This document shows, one piece after another, positions 1,461-44,743 of a DNA stretch of 64,000 nt; within the stretch, counting starts at the first letter, position 1; each line of letters opens with the position of its first letter. This stretch comes from Deltaproteobacteria bacterium (GTDB taxonomy: Bacteria; Myxococcota_A; Polyangia; Polyangiales; Houyiibacteriaceae). Where the stretch lies: positions 58,029 through 122,028 of the forward strand of contig JAEPMI010000011.1 in NCBI GenBank assembly GCA_017644045.1. The letters run 5' to 3'. Below the pieces are notes generated by a model that saw only the letters and a program-made list of their open reading frames with translations, was not told where the DNA came from and did not search any database. Both the position numbers and the translations under genes were made by a program.

Positions 1461-1520
1461 AAGGCCTCCCTCGATTGAGGTATTTTACTTTTTCGATCTG
1501 TCCGTCATCCTTTGGGGGCC

Positions 1521-2291
1521 ATGGCGTCGAAGTCTGACCCTCTATTGCCCGCCCTTCCTTCCACCGACCGGATGGAGCAGTCCTCGGGGGTCCACACCCG
1601 AGCACGTACTGGCAGGGCGAGCGAGTGGCGGGACGCGATCGCCGAGGCCGACGGCTCGGTCACGCCGATGGTCGACTCGTTGCTCTCCGCCTACGAAGCG
1701 CTCGAGCTCCGCTCGCGCTTTTTTGCCGAGCAGGTCCTCGCGGCCCGCGCCGTCCTCGACCGGCTGACCCTCTCGGTCCACGTCGTGTCGCGGACGGGCG
1801 TGGTCTTCGCCAACTCGGCGGGTCGACGCCTCGAGCGTGACGGCGTCCTGATCGACAGCGACGGGCGGCTCGAGTGCGCGGCCTACGAGGCCAAGGAACA
1901 GTTCGCCGAGGCGTATGCCGCCGCCGAGCGCGCCCTGGATGGCTGCCACCCCTTCGTGCTCGTGCGCGACAGCGGGCCCCGGCTCCTCGGCCTCGCCGTG
2001 TCGGCCGGTCGCTCGCTCCCGGGCGCGGTGATCGTGGTCGTTCGCGACCCCGAGGCAGAAGAGTCGGTCGATGCCGAGGTCTTCGCTCAGCACTTCGGGC
2101 TCACTCCGGCCGAGGCCCGGGTCGCGGTGTGTCTCGCTGCCGGCGAGACCGCCCGCCAGGCCGCCGACTCGCTCGGCATCGGCGTCGAGACCGTGCGGAC
2201 GCACGTGAAGAGCATCCTCCGGAAGATGGGCACCAACCGTCAGGTGGACGCGGTGCGCATGCTCGTGACCGGTCCGCTGCTCGTCAGCTGA
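1521..2291 (+). CDS. LuxR/GerE-family helix-turn-helix transcriptional regulator
   Basis: The C-terminus carries a LuxR-type HTH (LTPAEARVAVCLAAGETARQAADSLGIGVETVRTHVKSILRKMG). An unusually AT-rich island at 1461-1510 lies upstream. The start is ambiguous between TTG 1512 and ATG 1521. Confidence 0.8.
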   Translation: MASKSDPLLPALPSTDRMEQSSGVHTRARTGRASEWRDAIAEADGSVTPMVDSLLSAYEALELRSRFFAEQVLAARAVLDRLTLSVHVVSRTGVVFANSAGRRLERDGVLIDSDGRLECAAYEAKEQFAEAYAAAERALDGCHPFVLVRDSGPRLLGLAVSAGRSLPGAVIVVVRDPEAEESVDAEVFAQHFGLTPAEARVAVCLAAGETARQAADSLGIGVETVRTHVKSILRKMGTNRQVDAVRMLVTGPLLVS

Positions 2292-5330: not shown

Positions 5331-6455
5331 CTACTCGACCGGCGACTGCGAGGCGTTCCCCGCACGCCGCTCCTTCAGCACGACCTCGCCGCCCTCGAGC
5401 GCGAAGACCAGGTCGAAGCTCCACGACTCGGGCGGAGGCAACCCCTCGGTCGCGGCCTCGAAGCACGCCATCACCGCGGCGTGATCCAGCTGGTGCTCCT
5501 GCTCGCACTCGAAGTAGTGGCCCGCCTCGTCTTCGTGCTCGTCGAAGCCACCGGCGACGGAGACCACGAGGTCCCCCTCTTCGAAGCGCACGCCGGTCAC
5601 CGTTTCGGAGGCCTCGAGCGCGCCGTAGACGTCGCGCGCGTCCGACGAGCAGACCCGGGCCGCTTCCCACCAGCCCGAGTCGTCCTTCAGCACCAACCCG
5701 GTGGCCAGCATGGGCTCGTCCGGGAGCTCGCGGCTGATGAACGCGAGCTCCGGCCAGCCGTCGGGGCGAGCCGGGATCTCCACCTCGTCCCGTTGGCACT
5801 CGCTCTCGGGGCAGAGCGCTTCGAGGGTCGGTGAACGCTCCTCCTCGGCGTCCACCGCGCCCGCGTCGTCCGCGTCGTCCGCGCTCGATTCGGCGACCTC
5901 CGCCGCGGCCTCCAGGGCGTCCAGCTTGCGGCGAACGGTCCCGTTCGGTCGCAGCGAGAGCGACTCTCGCAGCGAGGCGATCGCTGCGTCGATGTCCTGT
6001 TCCGCCTCGTCGACGAGGGCGAGGTCGTAGAGGCACGCGGCTCGCCGACGCGGCTGGACCGCGACCGAGAGACCGGCGTCGAGGTGTCGTCGCGCCAGCG
6101 CCCATTGACCGAGCTGGATCGCTTGGTAGCCCGCCTCGCAGTGGAGGGTCGCGTCCGGTCCGCCGTCGCCGAGCGCGTCCTCGAACGAGCGGAGGGCCTG
6201 TGCGTGGCCACCTGCGCGGCCATGGCGTCGGCCGTCCGCGAGCAGCGTCGCTCGCCGGGAGGCCGCCTCCCGCTCCTCCGGCAACGCGCGCATGTGTGCG
6301 GCCGCGCGTCCCGCTGGAGTCGACGCTTGCACCTCCGGCGTGAGCGTTGGCGTGCTGGTGCTCCGTCCGCCGAGATCGGGGGACGACTCCTGCGTGCCGC
6401 AGCTGTCGCAGGCCGCCAGGAGCAGGGCGACGCAGGCGGCCGCCCGCGCCGTCAT
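5331..6455 (-). CDS. Lipoprotein with TPR-like segment and acidic C-terminal domain (hypothetical)
   Basis: ATG 6455 gives MTARAAACVALLLAACDSCG, a signal peptide with lipobox LLAAC. The start overlaps the kinase stop by 4 nt (ATGA, 6452-6455). The longer 625-aa ORF is an out-of-frame read-through across the kinase gene. Confidence 0.7.
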   Translation of the reverse strand: MTARAAACVALLLAACDSCGTQESSPDLGGRSTSTPTLTPEVQASTPAGRAAAHMRALPEEREAASRRATLLADGRRHGRAGGHAQALRSFEDALGDGGPDATLHCEAGYQAIQLGQWALARRHLDAGLSVAVQPRRRAACLYDLALVDEAEQDIDAAIASLRESLSLRPNGTVRRKLDALEAAAEVAESSADDADDAGAVDAEEERSPTLEALCPESECQRDEVEIPARPDGWPELAFISRELPDEPMLATGLVLKDDSGWWEAARVCSSDARDVYGALEASETVTGVRFEEGDLVVSVAGGFDEHEDEAGHYFECEQEHQLDHAAVMACFEAATEGLPPPESWSFDLVFALEGGEVVLKERRAGNASQSPVE

Positions 6456-7531
6456 CGCCGCGCGCCCGCCGCTTCGCGGGGCGCCGCGTCGACCGTTCGG
6501 AGCCGCTCGATGTCGAGGTGCTCGGTGACCGCGTTGTCGTCGATGACGGCCTGCCGCAGGCGATCGCGCGCCTGCGCGATGCTGCGCGCGATCACGTCGT
6601 TGCTGGTCGACTCCGGCGTCATCCGCAGGATGTTCGCCAGCGCCCGCACCATCGAGCGCGCGGAGGAGTAGCGGCGCTCCGGCTCCTTCTGGAGCGCTCG
6701 GTGGAGCGCGTCGCAGAGGCTCTGCGGCAGGTCGGGCCGCGACTCCGCGAGCGGCGGCACCTGGGCGTCGCGCACCTTCTGGAGCACGTCGAGCGGCGTG
6801 TCGCCCTTGAAGAGCTTCCGTCCGGCGAGCGCCTCCCAGAGCACGATGCCCACGCCGAAGATGTCGGTCTGCACGGAAGGGTCTGCCCCTCGGGTCATCT
6901 CGGGGGCGATGTACCCGAGCTTGCCCTTCACCATCTCCGGCTGGGTGGTGCGCGCGCGGTCCATCGCGCGCGCGAGGCCGAAGTCCGCCAGCCGCACGAC
7001 TCCGTTGGTGCCCATCAGGATGTTCTGGGGCGTCACGTCGCGGTGAAAGACCGGTGAGAGCTTTCCGTCCTCGTTCCGGTGGGTGTGCGCCGAGTTGAGC
7101 GCCTTGAGGATCTCGATGCCGATGGCGGCCGCCAGGTGCCACGGCGCGGGCTCTTCGACCGCGCGATGGGCCATCCGCCACTCGTGGAGGTTCAGGCCGT
7201 CGACCCACTCCATCACCAGGAAGTAGGCGCCGTCCTCGTCCCGGTCGAAGTCGTGGATCTGGACGATGTTCGGGTGCTGGAGGGCGGCCGTCACGCGCGC
7301 CTCCTCGACGAACATCGCGACGAACTTCGGGTCCTCGCTGAGCTCGTCGATGATCCGTTTCACGGCGACCGGCCGCCGGAAGCCCGCCACGCCGTGGGTG
7401 GTCGCACGGAAGACCTCGGCCATCCCACCGCGACCGGCGAGGGCGAGAAGCTCGTATTTTCCGCCCAGAAGGCGGCCGATGGCGGGGTGTTTCGACAAGG
7501 CGGAGTTGCGGCTGGAGTGCAACGTTACCAT
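6452..7531 (-). CDS. Eukaryotic-like Ser/Thr protein kinase
   Basis: Kinase motifs are present: GRGGMAEVF (Gly loop), PVAVKRI (Lys), HRDVTPQNIL (catalytic loop), ADFGLA (DFG) and GKLGYIAPE. ATG 7531 is preceded by GGAGGG. Confidence 0.9.
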   Translation of the reverse strand: MVTLHSSRNSALSKHPAIGRLLGGKYELLALAGRGGMAEVFRATTHGVAGFRRPVAVKRIIDELSEDPKFVAMFVEEARVTAALQHPNIVQIHDFDRDEDGAYFLVMEWVDGLNLHEWRMAHRAVEEPAPWHLAAAIGIEILKALNSAHTHRNEDGKLSPVFHRDVTPQNILMGTNGVVRLADFGLARAMDRARTTQPEMVKGKLGYIAPEMTRGADPSVQTDIFGVGIVLWEALAGRKLFKGDTPLDVLQKVRDAQVPPLAESRPDLPQSLCDALHRALQKEPERRYSSARSMVRALANILRMTPESTSNDVIARSIAQARDRLRQAVIDDNAVTEHLDIERLRTVDAAPREAAGARR

Positions 7532-7617: not shown

Positions 7618-8910
7618 ATGTCCCGTCGAATCCTCTTGGTGGCCCTCGCGTCCGCGGTCCTCGTGCTCGGGGGCGTCGGCCTCTGGAGCCACCACCAGGA
7701 CGGCGAGCGGGACGCTCACCTCGAGCGGGGCCGAGCGCTCCTGGCGACTTCGTTCGCCGAGGCTCCCGAGCTGCACGATCTGCCAGCGGGCGACGCCCTC
7801 GCGGCCTTCGAAGCCGCCGAGGCCCTCGGAGCCGCCATACCGGCCGAGCGCGCCTCCGCCGAGGCGCTCGCGTTCCTCCAGGCGGGCGACCTGGTCTCCT
7901 CCGCCGGCGCACTCCGCGAAGCCAAGCGGCCGGGCTGGACCGCCCGGCTCCGCCTCGTCGCGGCGGCCATCGCCGCGAGCCGGGGGCACGAGGCGGACGC
8001 TCGCGAGCACGTGAACGAGGCGCTCATCCTCTCGGCGGACGGGGACGACCCCGCGGACCACCGACGCGCGCTCCTCTTCGCGGGAGACCTCGCGCTCGAC
8101 GCCTCCGAGTCGCGCTCGGCGCGCGATGCCTTCGCCGAGCTCGCCGAGCTCGAGCCCGAGGTCGCGGCCGTCCACAACCGGCTCGGTTTGGCGCTCGAGG
8201 GCCTCGGCGAGTGGGAGCCCGCTCGTGACGCGGTGCGACGGGCGGTGAGCCTCGACCCGGAGCTGACCGACGGGTGGATCAACCGCGGTCGCCAGGCGCG
8301 AGCGCTCGGCGAGCTCGACGAGGCCGCCGAAGCGTTCGAACACGCGACCGAGCTGGCCCCCGCGCGGTCCGACGCCTGGCTCGGCTTCGGCCTCAGCGCG
8401 CTCGACCGAGGCGACCCCGCCGCGGCGCGCCCGGCGCTCGAGCGAGCGTCGGAGCTGGCGCCGGAGAGCGTGGATGCGTCGCTCGCGCTCGCCGACCTCC
8501 TCGCGGCCGAGGGCCGCCTCGACGAGGCCGCCGACGCGTACCGCCTCACGCTCCGCGACAACCTCCACCACGCCGCGGGTTGGGTGAAGCTCGGCAACGT
8601 GCTCTTCGCCCTCGGCGAGAAAGCCGATGCGGCCTTCGCGCACCGCCGCGCGCTCGAGCGGGACCCCTCGCTGGCGGCCGCCCACAACGGCCTGGGCGCC
8701 GCGCTCATCGGCATCGACGACGACGCCGCTCAGGCGGCGCTCCGCACCGCCGCCGAGCTCGACGCTGCCGACCCCCACCCGCTCATGAACCTCGCGCTCC
8801 TGGCCGAGCGCCGCGGCGACCGCGACGCCGCGCGCGACGCCTGGCAGCGCGCCGCCGAGCGCGACCCGGACAGCCTCGTGGTGGCCGAGCGCCTCGCCGC
8901 GCTGCGCTGA
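7618..8910 (+). CDS. TPR repeat protein with N-terminal membrane anchor
   Basis: The N-terminus is MSRRILLVALASAVLVLGGVGLW. Many TPR-like units follow (AWLGFGLSALDRGDPAAARPALERASELAP; GWVKLGNVLFALGEKADAAFAHRRALERDP). Confidence 0.8.
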   Translation: MSRRILLVALASAVLVLGGVGLWSHHQDGERDAHLERGRALLATSFAEAPELHDLPAGDALAAFEAAEALGAAIPAERASAEALAFLQAGDLVSSAGALREAKRPGWTARLRLVAAAIAASRGHEADAREHVNEALILSADGDDPADHRRALLFAGDLALDASESRSARDAFAELAELEPEVAAVHNRLGLALEGLGEWEPARDAVRRAVSLDPELTDGWINRGRQARALGELDEAAEAFEHATELAPARSDAWLGFGLSALDRGDPAAARPALERASELAPESVDASLALADLLAAEGRLDEAADAYRLTLRDNLHHAAGWVKLGNVLFALGEKADAAFAHRRALERDPSLAAAHNGLGAALIGIDDDAAQAALRTAAELDAADPHPLMNLALLAERRGDRDAARDAWQRAAERDPDSLVVAERLAALR

Positions 8911-8914
8911 CGCC

Positions 8915-9841
8915 TCAGACGTCGGCGCCGAGGCCGGTCAGCTCGACCGAGAGATCCCAGAGCCGCGCCGCGGCGGCCGAATCCGTCGCGTGCCGTGCCG
9001 GCGTCTCCCGCGTGGGCGTCCCGCGAATGCCGAGCATGCCATCGGGGCCGAAGAAGTCGCCGCCCTGCACACCGGGCGCCGTCGCCGCGTAGAGCGTCGG
9101 GAGCGCGCCCGCGTCTGCCTCCTGCGCGACGTACTGGTTGTTCAGCTTCATCAGCCAGGCCTGGAGCTTCGAGCCTTCGAGCTTCGGGCCCACGAACTGG
9201 AGGTTCGTGTCCGCGAAGCCCGGGTGGCAGGCCACGGCGATGGCCTTCGCGCCGCGCTTCTCCAGCCGCTTCTGCAGCTCGAGGGTGAAGAGCACGTTCG
9301 CCAGCTTCGACTGCCCATACGCGAGCCACTTCTGGTAGCCGCGCTGCCAGTTGGGGTCCTTCCAGCGCATGCGACCGAAGCGGTGGGCCATGCTGCTGAC
9401 CGTCACGATCCGCGCGTCGTCGGCCTCGAGGAGCTTGCCCAGCAGCCGCACGGTGAGCGCGAAGTGGCCCAGGTGGTTCGTGCCGAGCTGCATCTCGAAG
9501 CCGTCGGCCGTGCGACGCAGTGGCAGCGCCATGACCCCCGCGTTGTTGATGAGCCGGTCGAGGGTGGGGTGGTCCCGCTTCACGCCCTCGGCGAAGGCCT
9601 CCACCGACGAGAGGTCGGCGAGATCGAGCTGGCGGAGCTCGACGGTGGCCTTCGGGTGCGCGGCTTCGATCGCCTGGAGCGCCTTCCGCCCTCGCTCCTC
9701 GCTCCGGCACGCGAGGATGACGTTCGCGCCCTTGCCCGCGAGCACCTTGGCGGCCTCGAAGCCGATGCCGCTGTTGGCGCCGGTGACCACCACTCGGGCG
9801 CCCTTCATCGTGGGGACGTCGTCGATGCTCCAACCGCTCAT
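8915..9841 (-). CDS. Short-chain dehydrogenase/reductase (SDR)
   Basis: VVVTGANSGIGFEAA matches the TGxxxGxG motif, NNAG is present, and YGQSKLAN matches YxxxK. ATG 9841 was chosen (MSGWSIDD...). Confidence 0.85.
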   Translation of the reverse strand: MSGWSIDDVPTMKGARVVVTGANSGIGFEAAKVLAGKGANVILACRSEERGRKALQAIEAAHPKATVELRQLDLADLSSVEAFAEGVKRDHPTLDRLINNAGVMALPLRRTADGFEMQLGTNHLGHFALTVRLLGKLLEADDARIVTVSSMAHRFGRMRWKDPNWQRGYQKWLAYGQSKLANVLFTLELQKRLEKRGAKAIAVACHPGFADTNLQFVGPKLEGSKLQAWLMKLNNQYVAQEADAGALPTLYAATAPGVQGGDFFGPDGMLGIRGTPTRETPARHATDSAAAARLWDLSVELTGLGADV

Positions 9842-9894
9842 GAGCGGGGCATAGCACGCAGCCGCAGGTGGGCGATCCCCGCGCCGACCCTGCG

Positions 9895-9910
9895 AAAGGC
9901 GATCGCCTTT
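9895..9910. promoter_or_regulatory. Perfect 16-nt palindrome AAAGGCGATCGCCTTT in a divergent promoter region
   Basis: Read directly from the sequence. It lies 54 nt upstream of the SDR start and about 165 nt upstream of the stator-like operon. It may be an operator; no binding protein is known. Confidence 0.3.
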
Positions 9911-9987
9911 TGGCGCCGCCGATCGCGTCCCCGCTGTGATTCTCCAGCCTGGGGACAAGTGATCCAAGGCTCCGGAAACACGAGCAA

Positions 9988-10004
9988 ATCGCGAAATTCG
10001 CGAT
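9988..10004. promoter_or_regulatory. Perfect inverted repeat ATCGCGAA-A-TTCGCGAT (candidate operator)
   Basis: Read directly from the sequence. The 8-nt arms are separated by 1 nt. It lies about 70 nt upstream of ATG 10074. Confidence 0.3.
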
Positions 10005-10073
10005 CGAGAGGCTCAGTTCCGGTCGGTGCGATCTTGCTTGAACGCCCCGCACCCGCTCGCTAACCGCGAGCCG

Positions 10074-10982
10074 ATGTTGGGCTCCAAAGTGGTGCGTTCG
10101 CCCGCGCGCGCAGGGCGGACCCTGCGACGCAGCGCACCCGCTCGGGACACCCTCGAGCTGGCCGCGCGCCTCGATCGGCTGCGCGGCGTCGAGCCCCACC
10201 CCGGGCCGCGATCCCCCGTCGAGGTGCTCGCCACCCGGAGCGACCTTGCTGGCAGCGTCGCGGTGGCCGAGGTCCTGTCGAACGACGAGTGGCCGCCGGC
10301 CGAGCCAAGGGTCGACGACGGTCGTTGGCTCGCGAACCACGTCCGGGTCCGCCTCGAGAGCAGCGGCCGCTGGCTCGAGAAGACCCTCGCCGACCCCACC
10401 CGCGGTCGCAGCCCGCTCCCGGGCGCCGCGCGCGTCCACCGCGCGGTCACCGAGGAGTCGGCCCGGCCCGGCCGCCCCGACGACTGGCTCGTGGCCATCG
10501 CCGACAACCTCGGCCGGGTCTGGGCCCATCGTTGCCTGGCAGTGGTGCGCACGCTCCGCCGTGAAGCCGCCCGGCTCCGGAAGGAGTCCGCGGCCGACCT
10601 CTTCGCGCTCGGGCCGCAGGCCGCTCGCCTCGAGCGGCTCGACGCCGCCCTGCGCCGAAGCCTGGCGGCCGCCCGTGGTGACGCGGACCAGGCGCTGGCC
10701 GACCGCTTCGGCGGGGCGTTCGCCGCGCTCCTCGTGAGCTTCGTCGAAGCCCACGAGGACCCGTCCACGCTGGAGCTCGGTGCCGTCGAGCACTTCCTCC
10801 GCGCCGGACCCGCCGCCGAGCTGCGCTCGGACCTGGACGGAGCCCTTCGCGCCGCCTTCCGCGAAGAGCGGGCCCTCCTCGAGTCTCTCGTGCGCGCCTG
10901 CATCGACCGCGCATCCACGGCGTCCGAAGAGGCGCACCCCGAACCCGAAGCGGCTCCCGCCGCCGAAAGCCAACCGTCATGA
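10074..10982 (+). CDS. Hypothetical helical protein, first gene of the stator-like cassette (possibly DUF3348-like)
   Basis: High GC at third codon positions. The stop overlaps the next start (ATGA, 10979-10982). The protein is Arg/Ala/Leu/Glu-rich with no TM helix and no catalytic motif. The start is ambiguous (GTG 10026, ATG 10074, GTG 10090). The DUF name comes from remembered cassette annotation and is not verified. Confidence 0.6.
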   Translation: MLGSKVVRSPARAGRTLRRSAPARDTLELAARLDRLRGVEPHPGPRSPVEVLATRSDLAGSVAVAEVLSNDEWPPAEPRVDDGRWLANHVRVRLESSGRWLEKTLADPTRGRSPLPGAARVHRAVTEESARPGRPDDWLVAIADNLGRVWAHRCLAVVRTLRREAARLRKESAADLFALGPQAARLERLDAALRRSLAAARGDADQALADRFGGAFAALLVSFVEAHEDPSTLELGAVEHFLRAGPAAELRSDLDGALRAAFREERALLESLVRACIDRASTASEEAHPEPEAAPAAESQPS

Positions 10983-13363
10983 CGCGACTCGTTCTTCTCC
11001 TCGCCGGCAGCGCCGGTTTCGTGGTCGTCGCGCGCGCCGCTGCGTTCTACGCGGGCGTCGACACCTTCGCCTTCGGCCTGACCATCGTCATGGCGGGCGT
11101 CTTCGCCGTCGGACTGGCGGAGCTGGTGCTCCGGGAGCGTCGCGCCGCCGGACTGCGCAAGGCGCTCGACACACTCACCAGCAAGAAGGGCGGACCGGAT
11201 CTCGACGAGGCTCCGTCCGGTCTTCGCGCGCGCCTTCGCGCACACCTCGAGCGCGATCCGATGCCGGCCGACGTGCCGGTGATCGCGCCCTTCCTCGTGG
11301 GCCTGCTCGTGATGCTCGGCCTCCTCGGGACGTTCCTCGGTCTCTTCGAGACGCTCCGCGGCGCGCGCACCGCGCTCGAGGCGAGCGCCGACGTCGACTC
11401 CCTCCGCGCTGGTCTCGCCAGCCCGATGGGCGGCCTGATGCGCAGCTTCGGCACCTCCGCCGCGGGCGTGGCCTCCTCGGCGATGCTCGGGCTCGCGATG
11501 GTCTTCGTCCGTCGTTCGGGCCGCCGGCTGCAGGAGGCCATTCACGCCGCCTGCGCCGGTCCCCTCGCGCACCTCAGCGCGTCGCGCCGCCAGCTCTCGG
11601 CGCTCGAGGAGCTCGCGGAGCAGGGCCGCGCCATGCCGGCCGCCGCCGAGGCGCTCCAGGACGCGGTCCAGGTGCTGCGCACCATCGGCGAGGACGAGCG
11701 CGCCCGGGGCGCTCAGGTCGCCGACCGCATCGACGAGCTCCGCGGCGCCTGGCTCGAGGCGCACCGCGAGGCGGTGGGCGAGCTCCGCACGTCGCTCGAG
11801 GGCGCGGCCGCCAAGGCCGCCGACGCCGCGGGCGCGGCCCTCGCGCCGGCCACGGCGGAGCTCGTCGGCGCGGTCCGCCAGAGCGCGGCGGAACAGCTCG
11901 AGACCACCCAGCAAGTCAGTGCGGCGCAGCTCGCCGCGATCCGCGAGTCGGCCGAAGCACAGCTCGCGGCGCTCCAGAGCTCGATGCTCGAACAGCTCGA
12001 GGCGCTCGGAGGCGCTCAGGCGCAGCACGTGGCCGCCCTGCAGGAGACCCTCGCGGAGGAGCGCGCTGCGCGTCGCGAGGAGGACACCGCCGTGGCGGAG
12101 CGCCTCCAGGCCGCGGCCATGGCCGTGGCGGCCGATCTCGAAGCCGCCGCGAAGGGCCGGCGCGCCGACCAGGCCGCGCTCGGCGAGCGCTTCACCAAGC
12201 ACCTCGAGGCGCTTGGCGCGACCGAGGCGGCGCTCGGCGAGCGCTTCGCCGAGCAGCTCGCGGAGCTCCGCGGTGCCGAGGAGGCGCACGCGGCTCGGGT
12301 CGGCGACCGACTCGAGGCGCTCGGCGAGCGGTTGACCGAGCAGCTCGGCGCCGTGGTCGCCCGAGAGGACGAGCGCGCGGCGGAGGCCGGCGCGCAGATG
12401 GGCGCGATCGTCGATCGCTGGCGTGAGGCGCTCGAGAGCGCGCGCGCCACGGAGCGCGATCACGGCGAGCGGGTCGCGTCGGCGCTCCAGGCCGCCGAGG
12501 CCGCCATCCGCACCGGCGCCGAGCGCGTCGGGGCGCTCACCGAGGAGACCGCGCGTCGCGAGTCGGAGCGCGACGAGCGCGCCGAGGGCGTGCTCGCGAC
12601 CCTCGAGTCGATGGCCGTCGAGCTCGTCGCTGCCCGCGCCGCGCAGACGGAGCAGCTCGGCGAGGTCGAGGCTCGACTGGCGGATCGCCAGGCCGCTCGG
12701 GCACGCGACATCGCGGGCGCGCTCGAAGGGCAGGCCGAGCGCCTCGTCGCGCTGCAGGAAGCGCTCGAAGCCAAGCAGGCCGAGAGCGTCGCGACGATCA
12801 GCGGCTCGCTGGCCGGTCACGCCGAGAAGCTCGCGGCACTGCAGACGGCGCTCGAGGCGCAGCAGGTCGAGCGGCTGGAAGCCGTCACCGGTGCGCTCTC
12901 CGGTCACGCCGAGAAGCTCGCGGGGCTGCAGGAAGCGCTCGAGGCGCGGCACGCCGCGCACGCCGCCGAGCTCGCGGGCGCGCTGGTCGCCGAAGCGGAG
13001 CGCCTCGGCAAGGGCCTCGAGGAGACGTCGGCGCTCGTGCGCGACGCCGCCGGTGCGACCGCGGCGGGCGGCGCCGAGCTCGCTGCGGCCGCAGAGCTCT
13101 TCACGGCTGCGGTCGAGCGCCACGGCGAGGCGGCGCAGCGCTGGCTCGAGGGCCTCGGTCACGTGGAGCGGGCGGTGGAGGAAGCGGGCGAGGGCGCCGC
13201 GGTCGACGTGCTCGGCCAGTACCTCGCGCGCACCCACGAGCTCTTCGACCAGCAGCTCGGGTTCCAGCAGGCCCTCGTGGCTCAGATCGAGAACCAGGGG
13301 CCGCTCTTCGGCGCCGCGGTCGGGGCTTCCGTCCCGACCGAGGAAGTCCGCTCCGATGCTTGA
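10979..13363 (+). CDS. MotA/TolQ/ExbB-like membrane channel protein with a roughly 600-aa repetitive helical tail (DUF802-like; ZorA-like architecture)
   Basis: The N-terminal 190 aa hold 3-4 TM helices. Channel-family-like motifs are VGLLVMLGLLGTFLGLFETL and SFGTSAAGVASSAMLGLAMVFV. Residues from about 200 to 794 are Ala/Glu/Leu/Arg-rich with internal repeats (ALGERF... x2 and 29-aa units x3-4). Confidence 0.7.
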   Translation: MTRLVLLLAGSAGFVVVARAAAFYAGVDTFAFGLTIVMAGVFAVGLAELVLRERRAAGLRKALDTLTSKKGGPDLDEAPSGLRARLRAHLERDPMPADVPVIAPFLVGLLVMLGLLGTFLGLFETLRGARTALEASADVDSLRAGLASPMGGLMRSFGTSAAGVASSAMLGLAMVFVRRSGRRLQEAIHAACAGPLAHLSASRRQLSALEELAEQGRAMPAAAEALQDAVQVLRTIGEDERARGAQVADRIDELRGAWLEAHREAVGELRTSLEGAAAKAADAAGAALAPATAELVGAVRQSAAEQLETTQQVSAAQLAAIRESAEAQLAALQSSMLEQLEALGGAQAQHVAALQETLAEERAARREEDTAVAERLQAAAMAVAADLEAAAKGRRADQAALGERFTKHLEALGATEAALGERFAEQLAELRGAEEAHAARVGDRLEALGERLTEQLGAVVAREDERAAEAGAQMGAIVDRWREALESARATERDHGERVASALQAAEAAIRTGAERVGALTEETARRESERDERAEGVLATLESMAVELVAARAAQTEQLGEVEARLADRQAARARDIAGALEGQAERLVALQEALEAKQAESVATISGSLAGHAEKLAALQTALEAQQVERLEAVTGALSGHAEKLAGLQEALEARHAAHAAELAGALVAEAERLGKGLEETSALVRDAAGATAAGGAELAAAAELFTAAVERHGEAAQRWLEGLGHVERAVEEAGEGAAVDVLGQYLARTHELFDQQLGFQQALVAQIENQGPLFGAAVGASVPTEEVRSDA
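12716..13020 (+). repeat. In-frame 87-nt (29-aa) tandem repeat, about 3.5 copies, inside the tail of the MotA-like gene
   Basis: GGTCACGCCGAGAAGCTCGCGG occurs at 12815 and 12902, a spacing of 87 nt. CTGCAGGAAGCGCTCGA(A/G)G occurs at about 12752 and 12926, a spacing of 174 nt. The peptide units are GALEGQAERLVALQEALEAKQAESVATIS, GSLAGHAEKLAALQTALEAQQVERLEAVT and GALSGHAEKLAGLQEALEARHAAHAAELA. Confidence 0.9.
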
Positions 13364-14021
13364 AGACGACGACCAGGGCGACGGCGGCGTGTTCTACGCC
13401 GCCTTCGGCGACCTGATGGCGTGCCTCTTCGGCATCTTCGTCCTCTTCTTCGCCTGGATGGTCCTCTTCGAGGCCGACTTGAGCCAGGACCTGGCCGAGG
13501 TGCGGGCCGAGCACCAGGCCGCGGAGGCGCGGCTCGACGAGCTCGAGAGCGCCCTCGCCGGTCCGCTCGCCAGTGGCCTGATCACGCTCACGAATGGGCG
13601 CATCGGCATTCGCGGCTCGGTCCTCTTCGACTCGAGCTCGGCGGAGCTCCGCCCGGAAGGCCAGGACCTGCTGCGTCAGCTCGCGGGGCCGCTCCAGGCC
13701 TACCTCCAGCACAGCGGCGAGACCGCGATGGTCAGCGGCTTCACCGACGACCTCCAGCTTCGCCGCAACGGCTCCTTCGCCGACAACTGGGAGCTCAGCG
13801 CGGAGCGCGCGCTCACGGTGGTGCGCACGCTGACCGACGCGGGGCTGCCCGCGGGCCACGTGTTCGCCGCCGGCTTCGGCGCGCAGCACCCGATCGCGTC
13901 CAACGACGACGAGGACGGCCGCGCGCTCAACCGGCGAGTGGAGATCGCCCCGGTTCCGGCGCCGCTCCTCGAGCGACTCACCTCGGGCGCCGAGCCCGGC
14001 CAGGCGGACGGCAAGCAGTGA
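13356..14021 (+). CDS. MotB/OmpA-family protein: single TM helix with conserved Asp plus a peptidoglycan-binding OmpA-C-like domain
   Basis: ATG 13356 overlaps the upstream stop by 8 nt. The TM segment VFYAAFGDLMACLFGIFVLFFAWMVL has Asp19 (codon 13410-13412) in the position of the MotB channel Asp (AYADFMTAMMAFF). The OmpA-like motifs are FADNWELSAERALTVV and GRALNRRVEI. Confidence 0.85.
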   Translation: MLEDDDQGDGGVFYAAFGDLMACLFGIFVLFFAWMVLFEADLSQDLAEVRAEHQAAEARLDELESALAGPLASGLITLTNGRIGIRGSVLFDSSSAELRPEGQDLLRQLAGPLQAYLQHSGETAMVSGFTDDLQLRRNGSFADNWELSAERALTVVRTLTDAGLPAGHVFAAGFGAQHPIASNDDEDGRALNRRVEIAPVPAPLLERLTSGAEPGQADGKQ

Positions 14022-14674
14022 GCGATCCGCTCGAGGCGCTCCGAGAGCGGCTCGTTCGCGGAGCCGACCAGGGGCTCGCGGACTTCGACCGTCCGCGCGT
14101 CCGCTTCGTCGAGCGTCTGCTCGAGCGGGCGGAGGCGGGCCCCGAGGCCGCCACCCGTCGGCTCCTGGCGCGCGCCGAGGAGCGGCTGGCGGCTCTCGAG
14201 GAGGACTTCGAGCGGCACCGCACCGAGGCCGAGAACGAGCTCGAGCGGCTCGAATCCGTGGGCGCGGACCCGGCGGGCCTCGCCCGGGCGGCGTTCGAGC
14301 GCCACGCCTTCCGCGAGGTCCGGCGCCGGGCGCGGCGCCATCCGCAGCGTGCCCCACGGACCGCGCGTTCGCTCGGCGACGCCCACGCCCGGCGGCTCCA
14401 CCAGCAGCTCAGCGAGCGCGCTCCCATCGAAGCCGCGCATGCCGCGGCCGAGGGGGAGCTGCTCGAGGTCGCCCAGGCCCTCTACCGCGAGCGCTCCGCC
14501 GACGCGGTGGCCCAGCGGACCCTGGCCGACGCCCGCCGCGCGTTGCCCGCCGAGGCCGGCCCGTACCACGCGCTGACGGTGGCGGCGCGGGCCCTCGGGG
14601 CCCTCGAGCAGGCCGATCGCTCGCTCCTGCGCGCCTGGATCCACCGCCTCCGCGACATCGAGCTGGCAGGGTAG
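14018..14674 (+). CDS. Hypothetical helical protein, last gene of the stator-like cassette (possibly DUF2894-like)
   Basis: GTG 14018 overlaps the MotB-like stop (GTGA, 14018-14021). The 218-aa protein is Arg/Ala/Glu/Leu-rich with no TM helix. The DUF name comes from remembered cassette annotation and is not verified. Confidence 0.6.
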   Translation: MSDPLEALRERLVRGADQGLADFDRPRVRFVERLLERAEAGPEAATRRLLARAEERLAALEEDFERHRTEAENELERLESVGADPAGLARAAFERHAFREVRRRARRHPQRAPRTARSLGDAHARRLHQQLSERAPIEAAHAAAEGELLEVAQALYRERSADAVAQRTLADARRALPAEAGPYHALTVAARALGALEQADRSLLRAWIHRLRDIELAG

Positions 14675-14675
14675 G

Positions 14676-14693
14676 GCGCTCGGCCACGAGCGC
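14676..14693 (+). terminator. GC-rich hairpin directly after the cassette (GCGCTCG-GCCA-CGAGCGC), no U-tract
   Basis: A 7-bp perfect stem with a 4-nt loop begins 2 nt after the TAG at 14672-14674. The lack of a T-run makes an intrinsic-terminator function uncertain. Confidence 0.35.
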
Positions 14694-14747
14694 GTTCTCA
14701 TCGCCTTGGCTTGCAGGGGGCCCGCAAACCCCCCACTTTTGGCCCCG

Positions 14748-16007
14748 ATGATGCGCTACGGCCCCCTGGCTCTGGCGGTGCTGCTCTTCACCAGCCTCTT
14801 CGCGAGCAGCGACGCCCACGCCGACCGCACCTACGTGGTCCGCAACGGAGACACCCTCTCCGGCATCGCCCGGCGCTTCCACGTCACCATCAGCACCCTT
14901 CGCCGCGCGAACCGGCTGCGCAGCAGCGACTCGATCCGAGCCGGTGCCCGGCTGACGATCCCTGGGCGCCAGGCGTCCAACCGGGCGGCTCGGCGGGCCG
15001 GCTATCACGTGGTCCGGCGCGGCGACACGCTGAGCGGCATCGCGGCCCGCTACCGCGTCCCGATCCGGGCGCTGAAGCGCGCCAACCGGATCCGCGGCGA
15101 GAACATCCGCATCGGCGCTCGGCTCCGGATCCCGGGCCGGCGCAGCGAGAACCACCTCCCGCGGGTCGCCGAGCGCGAGCTCCGCCCCGACCAGGAGGAG
15201 GCGAAGGCCCGCGCCGAGCGTCTCGGCCTCGGCAGCGTTCGCGTCGCTCACACGCTCCTCGGTGGTCCCGGCCCCGAAGACCGATGGGTCGCCGCCGCTC
15301 GGCAGGCACCCTCGCGCATCCCGGCCTACGCCTTCGGCGTCGGCACCCCGATCGTCCCCCGTGAGGACGACGAGGAAGAGGACGCCGAGGAGACGCCCGA
15401 CGAGGTCGCGCTCGAGGACGACGGGCACGAGGGCGTCGAGGAGACCCCGCCCGAGACCTCGTCGGCGAACGACACCCCGGAGCCCGTCGCCGGCCCCGGC
15501 ACGCTCCGCTCGCCGCTCGACGAAGCCGTCTACCTACGCGGCTGGGGCTCGGGTGCCGGTGGCTACCACCTCGCCGTGGATCTCTACGCGCCGCCCGGCA
15601 CGCCGGTGAAGGCCTCCGCGCGCGGCATCGTGGCGTACGAGGGTCACGGCCTCCGCGGCTACGGCCGGATGGTCGTCATCCTCCACCCGAGCGGGCGGGT
15701 GACCGCGTACGCGCACAACCGTGAGACCCTCGTCGTCGAGGGCGAGCTGGTGGCCCGCGGGCAGATCATCGCGTTGGTCGGCAACACCGGCATCAGCCGC
15801 GGCCCGCACGTGCACTTCATGCTCGTCGACGGCGGCGAGCACTGCGACGCGATGCCGCTCTTCCGCCCCCGCATCCGCTGGCGCAACGGCAACATCGTCG
15901 AGACCAATCCGGTCGCCTGGACCGGCGAGCGCCCCGAAGAGGTGCGCTGCCTCCCGAAGTCGTCGCGCCCCCACCCGGGCACCCGCCGCCGTCGCCGTCG
16001 GCGCTGA
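14748..16007 (+). CDS. Secreted LysM (x2) plus M23-family peptidoglycan metallo-endopeptidase
   Basis: The signal peptide is MMRYGPLALAVLLFTSLFASSDAHA. Two LysM units are present (YVVRNGDTLSGIARRF; HVVRRGDTLSGIAARY). The M23 motifs are YHLAVDL and GNTGISRGPHVHF. The tail is poly-Arg (RRRRRRR). Confidence 0.9.
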   Translation: MMRYGPLALAVLLFTSLFASSDAHADRTYVVRNGDTLSGIARRFHVTISTLRRANRLRSSDSIRAGARLTIPGRQASNRAARRAGYHVVRRGDTLSGIAARYRVPIRALKRANRIRGENIRIGARLRIPGRRSENHLPRVAERELRPDQEEAKARAERLGLGSVRVAHTLLGGPGPEDRWVAAARQAPSRIPAYAFGVGTPIVPREDDEEEDAEETPDEVALEDDGHEGVEETPPETSSANDTPEPVAGPGTLRSPLDEAVYLRGWGSGAGGYHLAVDLYAPPGTPVKASARGIVAYEGHGLRGYGRMVVILHPSGRVTAYAHNRETLVVEGELVARGQIIALVGNTGISRGPHVHFMLVDGGEHCDAMPLFRPRIRWRNGNIVETNPVAWTGERPEEVRCLPKSSRPHPGTRRRRRRR

Positions 16008-16035
16008 CCTCTCCCTGGCGCACGAGTCCCCCCGC

Positions 16036-17655
16036 GTGCCATACCGGCCGCCCGTGGACGATGGCTTCCGAGGGCGCGCTCCGGGCGCGCGGCTGGCGAC
16101 GGTGGTCGTGCTGGCCTTCGTCGCGTTCGCCGCGATCCAGGCGTTCCAGATCCGGATCCGCTTCTACGACACCTACGACTACCTGAACGACGCCCGCGCG
16201 ATCCTCGGCGACGACGGGCCGGGCGCGGCCTACTACCGAGTCCACGCGCCGGTGATGCCGTTGGTCGCCACCCTCGGCGCGCTCGCACACGATCCGAGCG
16301 ACCCGGCGAACCGGTGGACCTGGCTGGTGCCGCACGCGCTCGCGTTTCTCTGGGTGCTGCTCACCCTCGCGGCGCTGGCCGCGTACCTCGGTCGCCGCCA
16401 CGGGCGCGGTCCGCCGTGGAACGGTTTCTGGATCTGGGGGCTCGCGCTCTTCGTCGCGACGCCCCTCTTCGTTCGCTACTCGCCGCACCTCCTGGTCGAC
16501 ATCCCGACCGCCGGCGCGGTCGCGGCGAGCCTCTGGCTCTGGGACCGCGTGCGCGTCGATCGCCAGTGGCGCTGGCCGATCCTGCTCGGTATCGCCTGGG
16601 GCGTCGCGATGGGGCTCAAGTACTCGCTGCTCCTCTTCCCAGGCGTCTTCGCGGTGGCCGCGGTCCTCGAGACCATCGTCGACCGGAAGCTCTTCACCGG
16701 GCGCAACGCTCGGGTCGCGCTCGCCGGCGCGACGGGCCTGGCGACCTTCTTCGGTCTCGTCTCGTTCGTCTATTCGCACGGCACCCCGGAGGGCTTCTCC
16801 TTCGAGCAGTGGGTGGCCGACCTCCGCGAAGCGTCCTCGATGGTCCGGCCGATGGAAGGCGATGGCCCCTGGGACAACGTCGTGATGCTCGGCCAGGTGC
16901 TCTCGCCGGTCGCGCTCGTGCTCGCGGCGATCGGGCTACCCGCGGCGCTGCACCGCTGGCGTCGCGACCTGCCTGCGGTGCTCTGGCTCGCGTTCTTCGT
17001 CGCCATGCTCTCGCTCGGCGTCGGTCACAGCGAGGCCCGCTACCTCTATCCGGTCTTCCCGGTGGTCATGCACCTCGCGGTGCTCGGGCTCCGCACGCTC
17101 TGGGGATGGCGCCGAGCGACGCCAGAGCGACGCGCGAAGGCCCAGCGGGCGCTGCGGGTGGTGCTCCCGGTCTCTCTCCTCGCGGCCAGCGTTCCCGGGG
17201 TGGCTCAAATGGTCACCGACCGCGACCCCTTCTTCCGTCGACCGACCCACCAGCGCGTCGCACGGCTCATCGTCGACGCGCTCCCCGACGACGGGAAGGT
17301 CCACTACTCGGGCCACTTCGTCGTGCTCACGCCGCCGAACAAGGTCACCTACGAGCGGGACGAGTTCTTCGACTTCTTCCACTTCGGTCACCCGGCGATC
17401 CACTTCCTCACGCGCCGGCAGGTCCTCGGCAGTCGCGTCGGTCGACCGGAGCTGGCCCTTCGCCGCGAGCGATCGGCAGCGGCGTTCATCGTCGGGCCCT
17501 CGCGCTTCCACCACGCGACGGACTACCTGGCCGGGCACGAGCTCCCGACGACCTTCGAGGTCTGGATTCGAACCGCCGACGGGACCATCGAATCGCACGG
17601 CTTCCCCAGCGCCGACCCCGGTCCACCGATGCCTGCCGAAGTGAGCGACCCGTAG
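16036..17655 (+). CDS. Polytopic membrane protein, GT-C-fold (ArnT/PMT-like) glycosyltransferase candidate
   Basis: About 10 or more TM helices are followed by a soluble C-terminal domain of roughly 120 aa. An acidic first loop (RFYDTYDYLNDAR) is present. The start is ambiguous (GTG 16036 or 16054). The family call rests on architecture only. Confidence 0.45.
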   Translation: MPYRPPVDDGFRGRAPGARLATVVVLAFVAFAAIQAFQIRIRFYDTYDYLNDARAILGDDGPGAAYYRVHAPVMPLVATLGALAHDPSDPANRWTWLVPHALAFLWVLLTLAALAAYLGRRHGRGPPWNGFWIWGLALFVATPLFVRYSPHLLVDIPTAGAVAASLWLWDRVRVDRQWRWPILLGIAWGVAMGLKYSLLLFPGVFAVAAVLETIVDRKLFTGRNARVALAGATGLATFFGLVSFVYSHGTPEGFSFEQWVADLREASSMVRPMEGDGPWDNVVMLGQVLSPVALVLAAIGLPAALHRWRRDLPAVLWLAFFVAMLSLGVGHSEARYLYPVFPVVMHLAVLGLRTLWGWRRATPERRAKAQRALRVVLPVSLLAASVPGVAQMVTDRDPFFRRPTHQRVARLIVDALPDDGKVHYSGHFVVLTPPNKVTYERDEFFDFFHFGHPAIHFLTRRQVLGSRVGRPELALRRERSAAAFIVGPSRFHHATDYLAGHELPTTFEVWIRTADGTIESHGFPSADPGPPMPAEVSDP

Positions 17656-21088: not shown

Positions 21089-22210
21089 TCACGGGACGAG
21101 GAGCGCCGGGTCTTCCACTGCGGCTGCCGTGCACTCGGCCGGTGCGCTCACCGGGTTGCAGCGGCTGGGGCTCCCACCCGGCATCGCGACGTGTAGCGCC
21201 ACGTCGTCCCGTGGCTCGGGGACGTCCGTGCTGATGATGTGTGCGCCGGTCGCGAGGACCGAGTCGAGCTCCGACTGGAGCTCGCCTTCGCTCTGCTCGA
21301 GCGCGTTCGGCATGCTCACCGCCCGCGAGCGCACGATGAAGCCGGCCTCCACCGCTTCCCGAGCGCTGCTGCCGCCGCCGTTGATGATGCGGAAGGCCGC
21401 CCAAGGGTCGTCGGCACGAGCGTCCGCGAAGATCACCCGGCCGGCCAGACCGGCGCCCTCGTTGGCGTAGCGTACGCAGTGGTCTCGGCTGCAGTTGAAG
21501 AAGAAGAGCGTCTTGCCGCGCACCTCGCCGAGCGTCGGCCAGCCCGTGGTGGTCACCGCTTCTCGCAGGGTCGCCGCTCTGCCCTGGACCTCGTCCGGGA
21601 GCACGAGCAGCTCGTCGTCGAAGACCATGCGAATCTCGGCGTCCAGCTGATCGAAGCGCCAGTCGCCCTCGGCGCCTTCCGGGAACGCGTTCCCCTTGGG
21701 CTCGATCTGCACGAAGATGGGGTGGTGTCCCGGATGGGCGTCGGACCACGCGCGAATCGTCGACAGGCAATCGAGGAGGAGGTCGCAGGTGGTCTCCTCG
21801 TCGATCGTCGGGATGTGCAGGACCTCCCAGCGAAGCCGCCGCTCGTCCCAGTAGGTGTCGAGCTCGAAGGCGCGGACGCCCTGCGACTCGAGCTGCTCGT
21901 CGAGAGGCTCGTTGTCGTAGTCCCAATCGGGGATCACCGGGTCCGGCTCGCGGTGGTAGCTGTTGTGCGTCCCCTCCATCTGGATGTGGTTCAGCCGAAG
22001 CGTGTCGTCCTGCGAGTGCGCGGGTGGGTCACCGGCCCGCATGAACGACGCATCGAAGGGATCGGGCTGCGCGTCGACCGGCGCTGGCGGTCCGCCGTCG
22101 CTCGGTCCTCCGTCCGCCATCGCTGCGTCGGGCGGGGACCCATCGTCGTCCCCACACCCGGCCGCCAGAACCGTCATCCCCAAGCCACCCAAGAGACACA
22201 AACGCCACAC
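21089..22210 (-). CDS. Lipoprotein with a Ca-dependent PI-PLC-like (phospholipase C X-domain-like) fold
   Basis: The signal and lipobox are MWRLCLLGGLGMTVLAAGC (GTG start at 22210). The motif LNHIQMEGTHNSYH is present. The family call is by resemblance. Confidence 0.55.
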   Translation of the reverse strand: MWRLCLLGGLGMTVLAAGCGDDDGSPPDAAMADGGPSDGGPPAPVDAQPDPFDASFMRAGDPPAHSQDDTLRLNHIQMEGTHNSYHREPDPVIPDWDYDNEPLDEQLESQGVRAFELDTYWDERRLRWEVLHIPTIDEETTCDLLLDCLSTIRAWSDAHPGHHPIFVQIEPKGNAFPEGAEGDWRFDQLDAEIRMVFDDELLVLPDEVQGRAATLREAVTTTGWPTLGEVRGKTLFFFNCSRDHCVRYANEGAGLAGRVIFADARADDPWAAFRIINGGGSSAREAVEAGFIVRSRAVSMPNALEQSEGELQSELDSVLATGAHIISTDVPEPRDDVALHVAMPGGSPSRCNPVSAPAECTAAAVEDPALLVP

Positions 22211-28903: not shown

Positions 28904-28931
28904 TTGACGGACGGTGGATATCGGCTACATA
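28904..28931 (+). promoter_or_regulatory. Sigma-70-like promoter candidate TTGACG-N16-TACATA upstream of hppA
   Basis: Read directly from the sequence. It is unusually close to consensus for this GC-rich DNA and lies about 67 nt upstream of ATG 28998. Confidence 0.35.
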
Positions 28932-28997
28932 CGCGCCGCCCCGTGGCGTCCGATCCCGGTCGCCCCTCCATTTTCGTACGGGAAGAGAGAACTTTCG

Positions 28998-31142
<2,145 letters not shown>

Positions 31143-36095: not shown

Positions 36096-39257
<3,162 letters not shown>

Positions 39258-42742: not shown

Positions 42743-44560
<1,818 letters not shown>

Positions 44561-44743
44561 AGCTGCACCTCTCGAGTTGGAGCGGCCCCAACGACCGCCG
44601 ATGGCTGAAGTAGCAACTCGTGGGCCAGGGGGCGGCGAGCCTTGCGGCGTAGGGAGTCCGGCGACGCGGCCCACATCGGAACGCAGCCGTCCCGATACGG
44701 AAATACTCGGCCCTTCGGCGGCCCGAGCGGCGGCAACGAGGGT

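Follow-up and report, generated by a model that had tools for sequence, protein, structure and literature searches.

A probable Zorya type III cassette with strongly diverged partner proteins on a Myxococcota chromosome

Four genes that follow one another on the forward strand of contig JAEPMI010000011.1 (assembly GCA_017644045.1) encode an apparent MotA/ExbB-type channel whose tail is helical, an anchor of the MotB/OmpA type and a pair of soluble helical proteins, and the question that such a locus raises is whether it specifies an envelope motor of a new kind or belongs to a family that already has a name. The whole 64,000-nt stretch that was analysed is called the window throughout, and positions are counted from its first letter. 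A first-pass annotation of the letters had recognised this architecture, which is borne out, and had taken the cassette for an uncharacterised motor. The answer reached here is that it is probably a Zorya type III anti-phage system, carried by a Myxococcota (Sandaracinus-like) chromosome and arranged in the order DUF3348-like protein, ZorA3, ZorB3, DUF2894-like protein. The cassette is thus a divergent cross-phylum copy of a named type and not a new class of machine; what sets it apart is its Myxococcota host, the strong divergence of its accessory proteins, a ZorA tail that lacks the DUF802 repeat and a setting in the core chromosome.

Zorya type III is defined as DUF3348-ZorA-ZorB-DUF2894, with 6,401 loci catalogued (Payne et al. 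2021, PMC8565338), and its canonical gene order is zorGABF (PMC11946911). The same-strand order of DUF3348, zorA, zorB and DUF2894 in the window is this canonical order, as in the annotated locus CP063167.1. The first-pass annotation had pointed to a betaproteobacterial cassette labelled DUF3348, DUF802, OmpA family and DUF2894; such a cassette does exist on annotated Variovorax and Burkholderia loci, and of the further claim that the window has the same order and architecture, the order stands while the DUF802 repeat was not found in gene 2. That cassette is not, however, one without an assigned function: it is already Zorya type III, and the copy of Stenotrophomonas nitritireducens DSM 12575 made phages plaque less efficiently on Escherichia coli into which it had been cloned, with protection in liquid culture only at a multiplicity of infection (MOI) below 0.1 (PMC8565338). 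Both DUF proteins were proposed in the same study to regulate ZorAB (PMC8565338). Nor does the lack of ZorC and ZorD, on which the cassette had been set apart from Zorya proper, exclude more than type I. The novelty of the motor had been made to depend on gene 2 standing outside any known family; gene 2 belongs to one (PADLOC ZorA3, 2e-75), and the claim falls. Sources differ in how they name the two partner proteins, with ZorF and ZorG exchanged: in the text of Payne 2021, as in Mariano 2025, ZorF stands for DUF3348 and ZorG for DUF2894, PADLOC-DB uses ZorG3 for DUF3348 and ZorF3 for DUF2894, and Hu 2024 uses both zorFABG and zorGABF.

Gene 3 matches PADLOC ZorB3 at 4.7e-80 (ZorB1 at 2.3e-19) and NCBIfam PRK09040 at 4.3e-80 (268 bits, with a cut-off of 194 bits), and it is 52-56% identical to the ZorB3 proteins of Ralstonia, Burkholderia, Variovorax and Caballeronia. 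The canonical peptidoglycan-binding domain that had been read from NWELSAERA...NRRVEI is present (Pfam OmpA, 3.5e-17); it matches the peptidoglycan-binding domains of MotB and PomB in the PDB at 1e-12 to 4.5e-16, and its DNWELSA-RALTV and NRRVE motifs are invariant from Myxococcota to Betaproteobacteria. A single hydrophobic segment (aa 20-38) was found; the sequence FGDLMACLF, said earlier to place an Asp at the position of the MotB channel residue, is present, and this Asp19 (FGDLM) is invariant in all seven aligned ZorB3 proteins, which come from Myxococcota and Betaproteobacteria. It is the equivalent of Asp26 in EcZorB, a residue that is, together with the peptidoglycan-binding residues, essential for defence (PMC11946911).

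Gene 2 is matched by four PADLOC ZorA3 models (2e-75, 1.2e-73, 3.5e-54 and 5.1e-54), while the type I model ZorA1 matches it weakly, at 2.3e-13, and ZorA2 at 0.03; the ZorA3 and ZorB3 bit scores are 5 to 20 times those of any other PADLOC model. NCBIfam antiphage_ZorA_2 gives 1.5e-4, under its cut-off, and gene 2 is 28-34% identical to betaproteobacterial DUF802 proteins (about 31-33% in the ZorA head). Pfam MotA_ExbB (PF01618) did not match gene 2 at E <= 1, and the link to stators was therefore made through the ZorA models, which PADLOC describes as ‘MotA/ExbB/TolQ’, and through a profile of the head. Full-length gene 2 found nothing in the PDB at E <= 0.01 with phmmer; a profile of eight ZorA3 heads found a solved ZorA chain, 8vvn_C, at E 5.9e-6 over the last two transmembrane (TM) helices. 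This chain is a 696-aa ‘MotA/TolQ/ExbB proton channel domain-containing protein’ from an entry with five chains.

The three or four N-terminal TM helices predicted earlier correspond to four hydrophobic segments (aa 4-22, 33-51, 105-123 and 159-177), and both motifs picked out at the time, LGLLGTFLGLF and SAAGVASSAMLGLAMVFV, are present. Hydropathy and the Lys/Arg-rich loop after the first two segments suggest a four-TM, N-in topology of the MotA-like 2+2 kind; by comparison, EcZorA has three TM helices, whereas the ZorA3 of the window has, by hydropathy, two of its four hydrophobic segments at the N-terminus. The best-conserved parts of ZorA3 are LVGLLVxLGxLGTxLG and FGTSxAGVAxSAxLGL, with 59-69% mean identity across Myxococcota and Betaproteobacteria; the invariant channel residues include G117, T118, G158, T159 and S160, and the region aligns with GTF...LTS of 8vvn_C. 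By analogy with type I, T118 and S160 may be the counterparts of the Thr147/Ser184 ion filter of EcZorA.

The two outer genes are the diverged part of the cassette. Direct hidden Markov model (HMM) matches of gene 1 are sub-threshold, at E 0.052 for Pfam DUF3348 (13.7 bits, with a 25-bit cut-off) and E 0.068 for PADLOC ZorG3; ZorG3 matches three of seven orthologues, weakly (some at 2.4e-6 and 1.9e-5), and none of the ten homologues retrieved by a word index is annotated. An hhalign comparison of nine gene 1 orthologues with four canonical DUF3348 proteins gave a probability of only 3% (E 0.014). When a profile of the orthologues was run against 1.84e9 representative proteins, it gathered 78 proteins of like length, half of which (39/78) are matched by Pfam DUF3348, and the alignment of these 78 sequences matches canonical DUF3348 with 95.9% probability (E 6.2e-9) over 221 columns, near full length. 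Because the widened alignment matches in this way, gene 1, lying directly upstream of zorA, is judged from its sequence to be a very divergent DUF3348/ZorG3 protein.

Gene 4, directly downstream of zorB, is by its model matches and alignments a DUF2894/ZorF3 protein. It matches PADLOC ZorF3 at 3.6e-7 and Pfam DUF2894 at E 3.4e-5, with 24.9 bits against a 25-bit cut-off; homologues 72-90% identical to it bear PF11445, and hhalign aligns it with canonical DUF2894 at 82.5% probability (E 9.8e-6). Residues G19, R27 and P177-x-x-A180-G181-P182 are invariant in 48 sequences, among them Myxococcota proteins and 40 DUF2894 proteins of Burkholderiaceae type. Searches of the betaproteobacterial loci by tblastn with genes 1 and 4 gave no matches. 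The C-termini of canonical DUF2894 proteins, and of some from Myxococcota, are Lys/Arg-rich (e.g. KKSGRGKxR, KRPPPKRKRSPAKRSR); the comparison took in P0094 and the 263-aa DUF2894-like fourth gene of locus L038 (11089-11880, forward strand). The L038 gene overlaps the zorB stop and matches ZorF3 at 5.1e-9; the source gene finder had missed it and called a 60-aa fragment instead.

That both partners are soluble, helical and without a catalytic motif, as the first-pass annotation had it, is upheld by the absence of hydrophobic segments from both proteins and by AlphaFold2 models composed entirely of helices. The model of gene 1 has a predicted local distance difference test (pLDDT) score of 90.2 and a predicted TM-score (pTM) of 0.85; that of gene 4, of moderate confidence, has a pLDDT of 79 and a pTM of 0.52. 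Foldseek searches of gene 1 against the PDB and BFVD, and of gene 4 against the PDB, gave E values of 0.14 or worse throughout; TM-scores in the top ranks were about 0.1-0.3, and none of the matches listed exceeded 0.34. Relatives suggested there among alpha-pore-forming toxins, designed bundles and ciliary proteins were set aside as generic helical similarity. In these predicted structures, no catalytic fold or enzyme relative is evident for gene 1 or gene 4.

The order of the four genes recurs in at least eight further independent lineages from metagenomes and metagenome-assembled genomes (MAGs) and on four betaproteobacterial replicons, and full cassettes with overlapping genes are found at loci L001/L009, L004, L034, L036, L037, L038 and L039; the synteny that had been anticipated thus extends from Myxococcota-type loci to Betaproteobacteria. 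The annotated loci of Variovorax (DUF3348/DUF802/OmpA family/DUF2894) and Burkholderia sp. RPE67 show the gene order of the window; the Ralstonia and Caballeronia loci used for comparison are unannotated. Of the two closest named relatives, one is the MAG Myxococcales bacterium UBA1660, whose ZorB is 87% identical and which was the sole close genome in a scan of genome contigs with gene 3. The other is a Sandaracinus sp. MAG, which has a homologue of gene 4, and more distant relatives of gene 1 are labelled ‘Myxococcota bacterium’.

Table 1. Positions of the cassette, of its notable elements and of neighbouring genes in the window.
Feature	Position	Strand	Remarks
Gene 1, DUF3348-like (ZorG3)	10074-10982	+	302 aa, soluble, all-helical
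Gene 2, ZorA type III	10979-13363	+	794 aa; membrane head ~aa 1-200, helical tail ~aa 201-794
Gene 3, ZorB type III	13356-14021	+	221 aa; TM helix, helical linker, OmpA-like domain aa 90-193
Gene 4, DUF2894 protein (ZorF3)	14018-14674	+	218 aa, GTG start, soluble, all-helical
ZorA channel-lining helices aa 105-123 and 159-177 with intervening loop	11291-11509	+	Conserved motifs
18-residue tandem repeat in ZorA tail, 2.4 copies	12161-12287	+	Tandem Repeats Finder (TRF) period 54 nt, 79% matches
29-residue tandem repeat in ZorA tail, ~3 copies	12704-12984	+	TRF period 87 nt
Conserved ZorA tail tip, aa 681-760	13019-13258	+	Identity to 7 orthologues
ZorB Asp19 codon GAC, FGDLM motif	13410-13412	+	Candidate proton-carrying residue; sequence read directly
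GC-rich hairpin after gene 4 stop	14676-14693	+	7-bp stem, 4-nt loop; doubtful significance
Ser/Thr kinase	6452-7400	-	Transcribed divergently from the TPR gene
~430-aa TPR protein	7618-8910	+	Transcribed divergently from the kinase gene
H+-pyrophosphatase, SecA, GlmS-like amidotransferase, three hybrid histidine kinases	28914-31142, 36096-39257, 42743-44674 (-), 40529-42730 (-), 55675-61147		
Syntenic with a GerE-type regulator gene	1512-2291	+	Weak PADLOC CARF3 matches (about 8e-5) at C-terminus
LysM-LysM-Peptidase_M23 hydrolase	14706/14748-16007	+	About 30-75 nt after gene 4
PI-PLC-like phospholipase C	21089-22210	-	Ca2+-dependent; 2.2e-67
Neutral/alkaline ceramidase-like protein	22610-24367	+	1.4e-36

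The junctions between the genes support the integrity of the operon. All four same-strand open reading frames (ORFs) and the three stop/start overlaps described earlier were found: ATGA between genes 1 and 2 (10979-10982), ATGCTTGA between genes 2 and 3 (13356-13363) and GTGA between genes 3 and 4 (14018-14021). An upstream GTG at 10026 offers an alternative start for gene 1; ATG 10074 was retained because the orthologues start with MLGSK. Third-position GC in genes 1 and 2 is 0.87-0.91, which is typical for real genes in a window of ~70-75% GC. The claim that a hairpin closes the set holds only in so far as the hairpin exists: it has no U-run, was not called by a terminator scan and lacks a counterpart in the nearest orthologous locus, L001, and the GC-rich window has a hairpin of comparable quality roughly every 561 nt, so its role as an operon terminator is unsupported. 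Antisense ORFs, such as one of 1074 aa at 10013-13237 on the reverse strand, were rejected as artefacts of 75% GC, without homology, because homology and synteny lie with the forward-strand genes; further long ORFs within 8000-17000, antisense or overlapping, are likewise expected at 75% GC, show no homology and are not regarded as genes.

The tail of ZorA, ~590 aa long, is built as the first-pass annotation described it, from Ala/Glu/Leu/Arg-rich helical sequence with internal repeats (a 29-aa unit in ~3 copies and an 18-aa unit in 2.4 copies by TRF). Its A/E/L/R/Q fraction is 0.68, its net charge -45, and only one Pro occurs from aa 221 to 774. The hydrophobic period is 3.62-3.66 residues (power 4.68; shuffled sequences give 0.94 +/- 0.20), a heptad signal is absent, and repeats of 29 residues (eight helical turns) and 18 residues (five turns) fit this period. 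A period of ~3.6 suits a right-handed coiled coil, as described for the 70-nm pentameric tail of EcZorA, and if the length per residue of EcZorA (~700 Å for about 507 residues) applies, the tail in the window would be roughly 80 nm long. Pfam DUF802 was found neither in gene 2 at E <= 1 nor in the L001 and L004 orthologues at E <= 0.01, while it matches the ZorA3 of Variovorax and Caballeronia at 1.4e-31 and 7.9e-33; DUF802 in the tail is a Pfam label of canonical ZorA3 and not a PADLOC criterion. ZorA length varies from 718 to 939 aa among orthologues. Mean identity to seven orthologues is 0.49-0.59 in the tip (aa 681-760) and 0.16-0.34 in the shaft (aa 241-680), and conservation of the tip reaches betaproteobacterial ZorA3; a tip conserved across phyla on a variable shaft is therefore marked as a functional interface.

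By homology, the predicted wall anchor, the putative proton-carrying Asp, the channel helices and the long tail are those of a ZorAB-type motor. On the model of the type I and type II ZorAB structures, five ZorA3 subunits would surround two ZorB3 subunits to form a proton-driven rotary motor. Perturbation of the envelope by a phage would lead ZorB3 to anchor to the cell wall, as in types I and II, and proton flow via Asp19 would then turn the ZorA3 ring together with its tail, in the form of a right-handed pentameric coiled coil; genes 1 and 4 may read the signal at the conserved tail tip, again by analogy. The output may be non-nucleolytic, with the partners acting as regulators or as a clutch of the motor, and activation might, speculatively, lead to an abortive-type loss of membrane potential through a proton leak or to recruitment of a host factor. 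A regulatory or abortive output appears more likely because the partners look non-enzymatic and published protection by type III was seen at low MOI only; direct cleavage of DNA, as in types I and II, is less likely.

A different output within Zorya type III is possible, if on the unlikely side: genes 1 and 4 could be adaptors for a nuclease or another effector whose gene lies elsewhere, which they would recruit or activate, or could themselves bind phage DNA, in either case giving direct immunity. The type I tail tip recruits soluble effectors, and the tip in the window is conserved; moreover, the canonical DUF2894 protein is basic (isoelectric point, pI, of 10), with a Lys/Arg-rich tail for which nucleic acid or the acidic ZorA tail (-45) could be a ligand. 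Gene 4 of the window and its closest relatives lack this basic C-terminal tail, however, and the pI of gene 4 is 8.4, compared with 10.0 for the DUF2894 protein of Variovorax. No nuclease-like gene is conserved beside the cassette in the 12 loci inspected, and the restriction of type III protection to low MOI fits an abortive or weak defence better than direct immunity.

Several points weigh against an anti-phage role for the cassette, or against details of the type III scheme. The defence activity of type III rests on one test in E. coli of a distant member of betaproteobacterial/xanthomonad type; direct HMM matches of gene 1 stay under threshold, with no ZorG3 match in four of seven orthologues; and the 5:2 stoichiometry, the rotation of the tail, the binding of genes 1 and 4 to its tip and the abortive output are predictions. 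The cassette also lies outside any defence island, among kinase, TPR, SDR, LysM-M23 peptidase and glycosyltransferase genes, and it looks vertically inherited, as defence genes seldom are.

The surroundings bear this out in some detail. Upstream stand a citrate-type transporter, a Ser/Thr kinase (reverse strand), a TPR protein (forward) and an SDR (reverse); downstream follow a LysM-LysM-M23 peptidase, a PMT/GT22-like glycosyltransferase, a beta-helix protein and PI-PLC, and, further along, a ceramidase, H+-pyrophosphatase, SecA, GlmS and hybrid histidine kinases. On the strength of the H+-pyrophosphatase, SecA, the GlmS-like protein and the histidine kinases, the window is regarded as core chromosome; no tRNA genes were found in its context. 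Among the genes around the cassette, the only defence-model match is that of the kinase to PD-T4-6 (PADLOC, 1.7e-68), which was judged to reflect generic kinase-domain similarity and not a defence island. The weak CARF3 matches near the start of the window are probably helix-turn-helix-level similarity, because the syntenic gene in L001 and L039 encodes a GerE-type helix-turn-helix regulator. A scan of metagenome contigs with the TPR neighbour, aimed at versions of the locus that lack the cassette, yielded a single close relative, on a contig of 2 kb; the other matches were generic TPR proteins. The PI-PLC-like and ceramidase-like genes adjoin each other, a pair of eukaryote-type lipid-signalling enzymes on a bacterial chromosome. 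LysM-M23 hydrolases also occur about 7-40 nt after gene 4 in L001 (14821-16098) and, at L034 (7723-9111), close to the cassette but on the other strand; the neighbour may be there by chance or through a functional link to the peptidoglycan-binding ZorB.

On such evidence the cassette could be mainly a housekeeping motor of these Myxococcota, given to envelope surveillance or linked to the cell wall, with any anti-phage effect incidental; this is unlikely. Such a motor would sense peptidoglycan or envelope integrity and signal through the tail and the two partners. The core-chromosome setting without defence or mobile-element genes nearby speaks for it, as does the parallel divergence of the cassette and its neighbours. 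Identity between the window and L001 is 70% for the TPR protein, 76% for the SDR, 72% for the LysM-M23 protein and 63-87% for genes 1-4, and between the window and L004 it is 47% for the TPR protein and 40% for gene 1. The kinase/TPR pair stands upstream of the cassette in four lineages, namely the window, L001/L009 (L001 5286-7791), L004 (33-2473) and L039 (4240-6780), and its retention where gene 1 is only ~40% identical looks like long vertical inheritance. A LysM-M23 hydrolase adjoins or lies near the cassette in three lineages, the canonical copies of Variovorax and Burkholderia also sit among metabolic genes, ZorB3 occurs in 135 Ralstonia plasmid records, and neither partner has an effector-like fold. 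Against this, phage protection in E. coli has been seen with a canonical type III system, and types I and II, with the same motor, are bona fide defence systems. Synteny is to be expected within a family, and the loci were found solely through searches with cassette proteins, which amounts to ascertainment bias; the kinase/TPR and M23 neighbours are, besides, absent from L034, L036, L037 and L038, save for the M23 gene on the opposite strand in L034.

The broader version of this idea, that DUF3348-ZorA-ZorB-DUF2894 in Myxococcota, and perhaps type III generally, is a vertically inherited core motor for envelope integrity and primarily not a defence system, is still less probable. If it were true, the state of the cell wall would be coupled to cytoplasmic signalling through a rotating tail of ~80 nm and two partners of novel fold, possibly joined by the neighbouring Ser/Thr kinase/TPR pair or the LysM-M23 hydrolase. 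Least of all is the cassette likely to be a classical motility or transport stator (MotAB/PomAB, AglRQS, ExbBD or TolQR) instead of Zorya: although gene 3 resembles MotB/PomB in its peptidoglycan-binding domain and has NCBIfam MotD/MotB and weak MotB_plug matches (E 0.036; 14.1 bits, with a 24-bit cut-off), gene 2 has a MotA-like 2+2 layout and myxobacterial gliding uses AglRQS, this very improbable reading founders on the failure of Pfam MotA_ExbB to match gene 2, on flagellar MotB, MotD and MotS models that fall far under their NCBIfam cut-offs where PRK09040 passes, on the far higher ZorA3 and ZorB3 scores, on a tail and two DUF partners that are features of Zorya III, and on the absence of flagellar, gliding, TonB or Tol-Pal genes nearby.

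If the cassette is, as seems probable, Zorya type III, it belongs to a Myxococcota clade in which Pfam and PADLOC find ZorA and ZorB, usually miss DUF3348 and place DUF2894 at the borderline; automated defence calls therefore tend to show ZorAB as an orphan or to miss the system altogether. Alone among the Zorya types, type III has no recognisable effector. Comparison across two phyla singles out the ZorB Asp, the channel helices, the ZorA tail tip on its variable, repeat-built shaft and the P-x-x-AGP motif of DUF2894; these conserved parts are targets for mutagenesis, and the locus is useful for improving the models.

Among known machines, ExbBD, TolQR and AglRQS belong to the same superfamily of 5:2 ion-driven motors; ExbD, TolR and AglS are not known to have an OmpA-like domain, and none of their family models matches within the cassette, nor do TonB, Pal or gliding partners lie nearby. 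MotAB and PomAB come closer, with a B-subunit that has, like gene 3, a TM Asp and an OmpA-like domain; MotA, unlike the ZorA3 of the window, is without a tail of ~590 aa, and no flagellar genes lie near the cassette. Types I and II of Zorya have the ZorAB core in common with the window, namely the ZorB TM Asp, the OmpA-like domain, the MotA/ExbB-like channel helices and a long helical tail. They differ in their effectors: type I (EcZorABCD; Hu et al. 2024, PMC11946911) has ZorC and ZorD, and type II (ZorABE; Mariano et al. 2025, PMC11890865) has ZorE, whereas PADLOC models for ZorC, ZorD and ZorE matched none of the four cassette proteins or ten flanking proteins. Canonical Zorya type III differs from the cassette in carrying Pfam DUF802 at aa 320-372 of ZorA3 and in its described range, which is mainly Pseudomonadota and here reaches into Myxococcota; the two share all four families, their order, their placement on a single strand and the overlaps between genes (Payne 2021).

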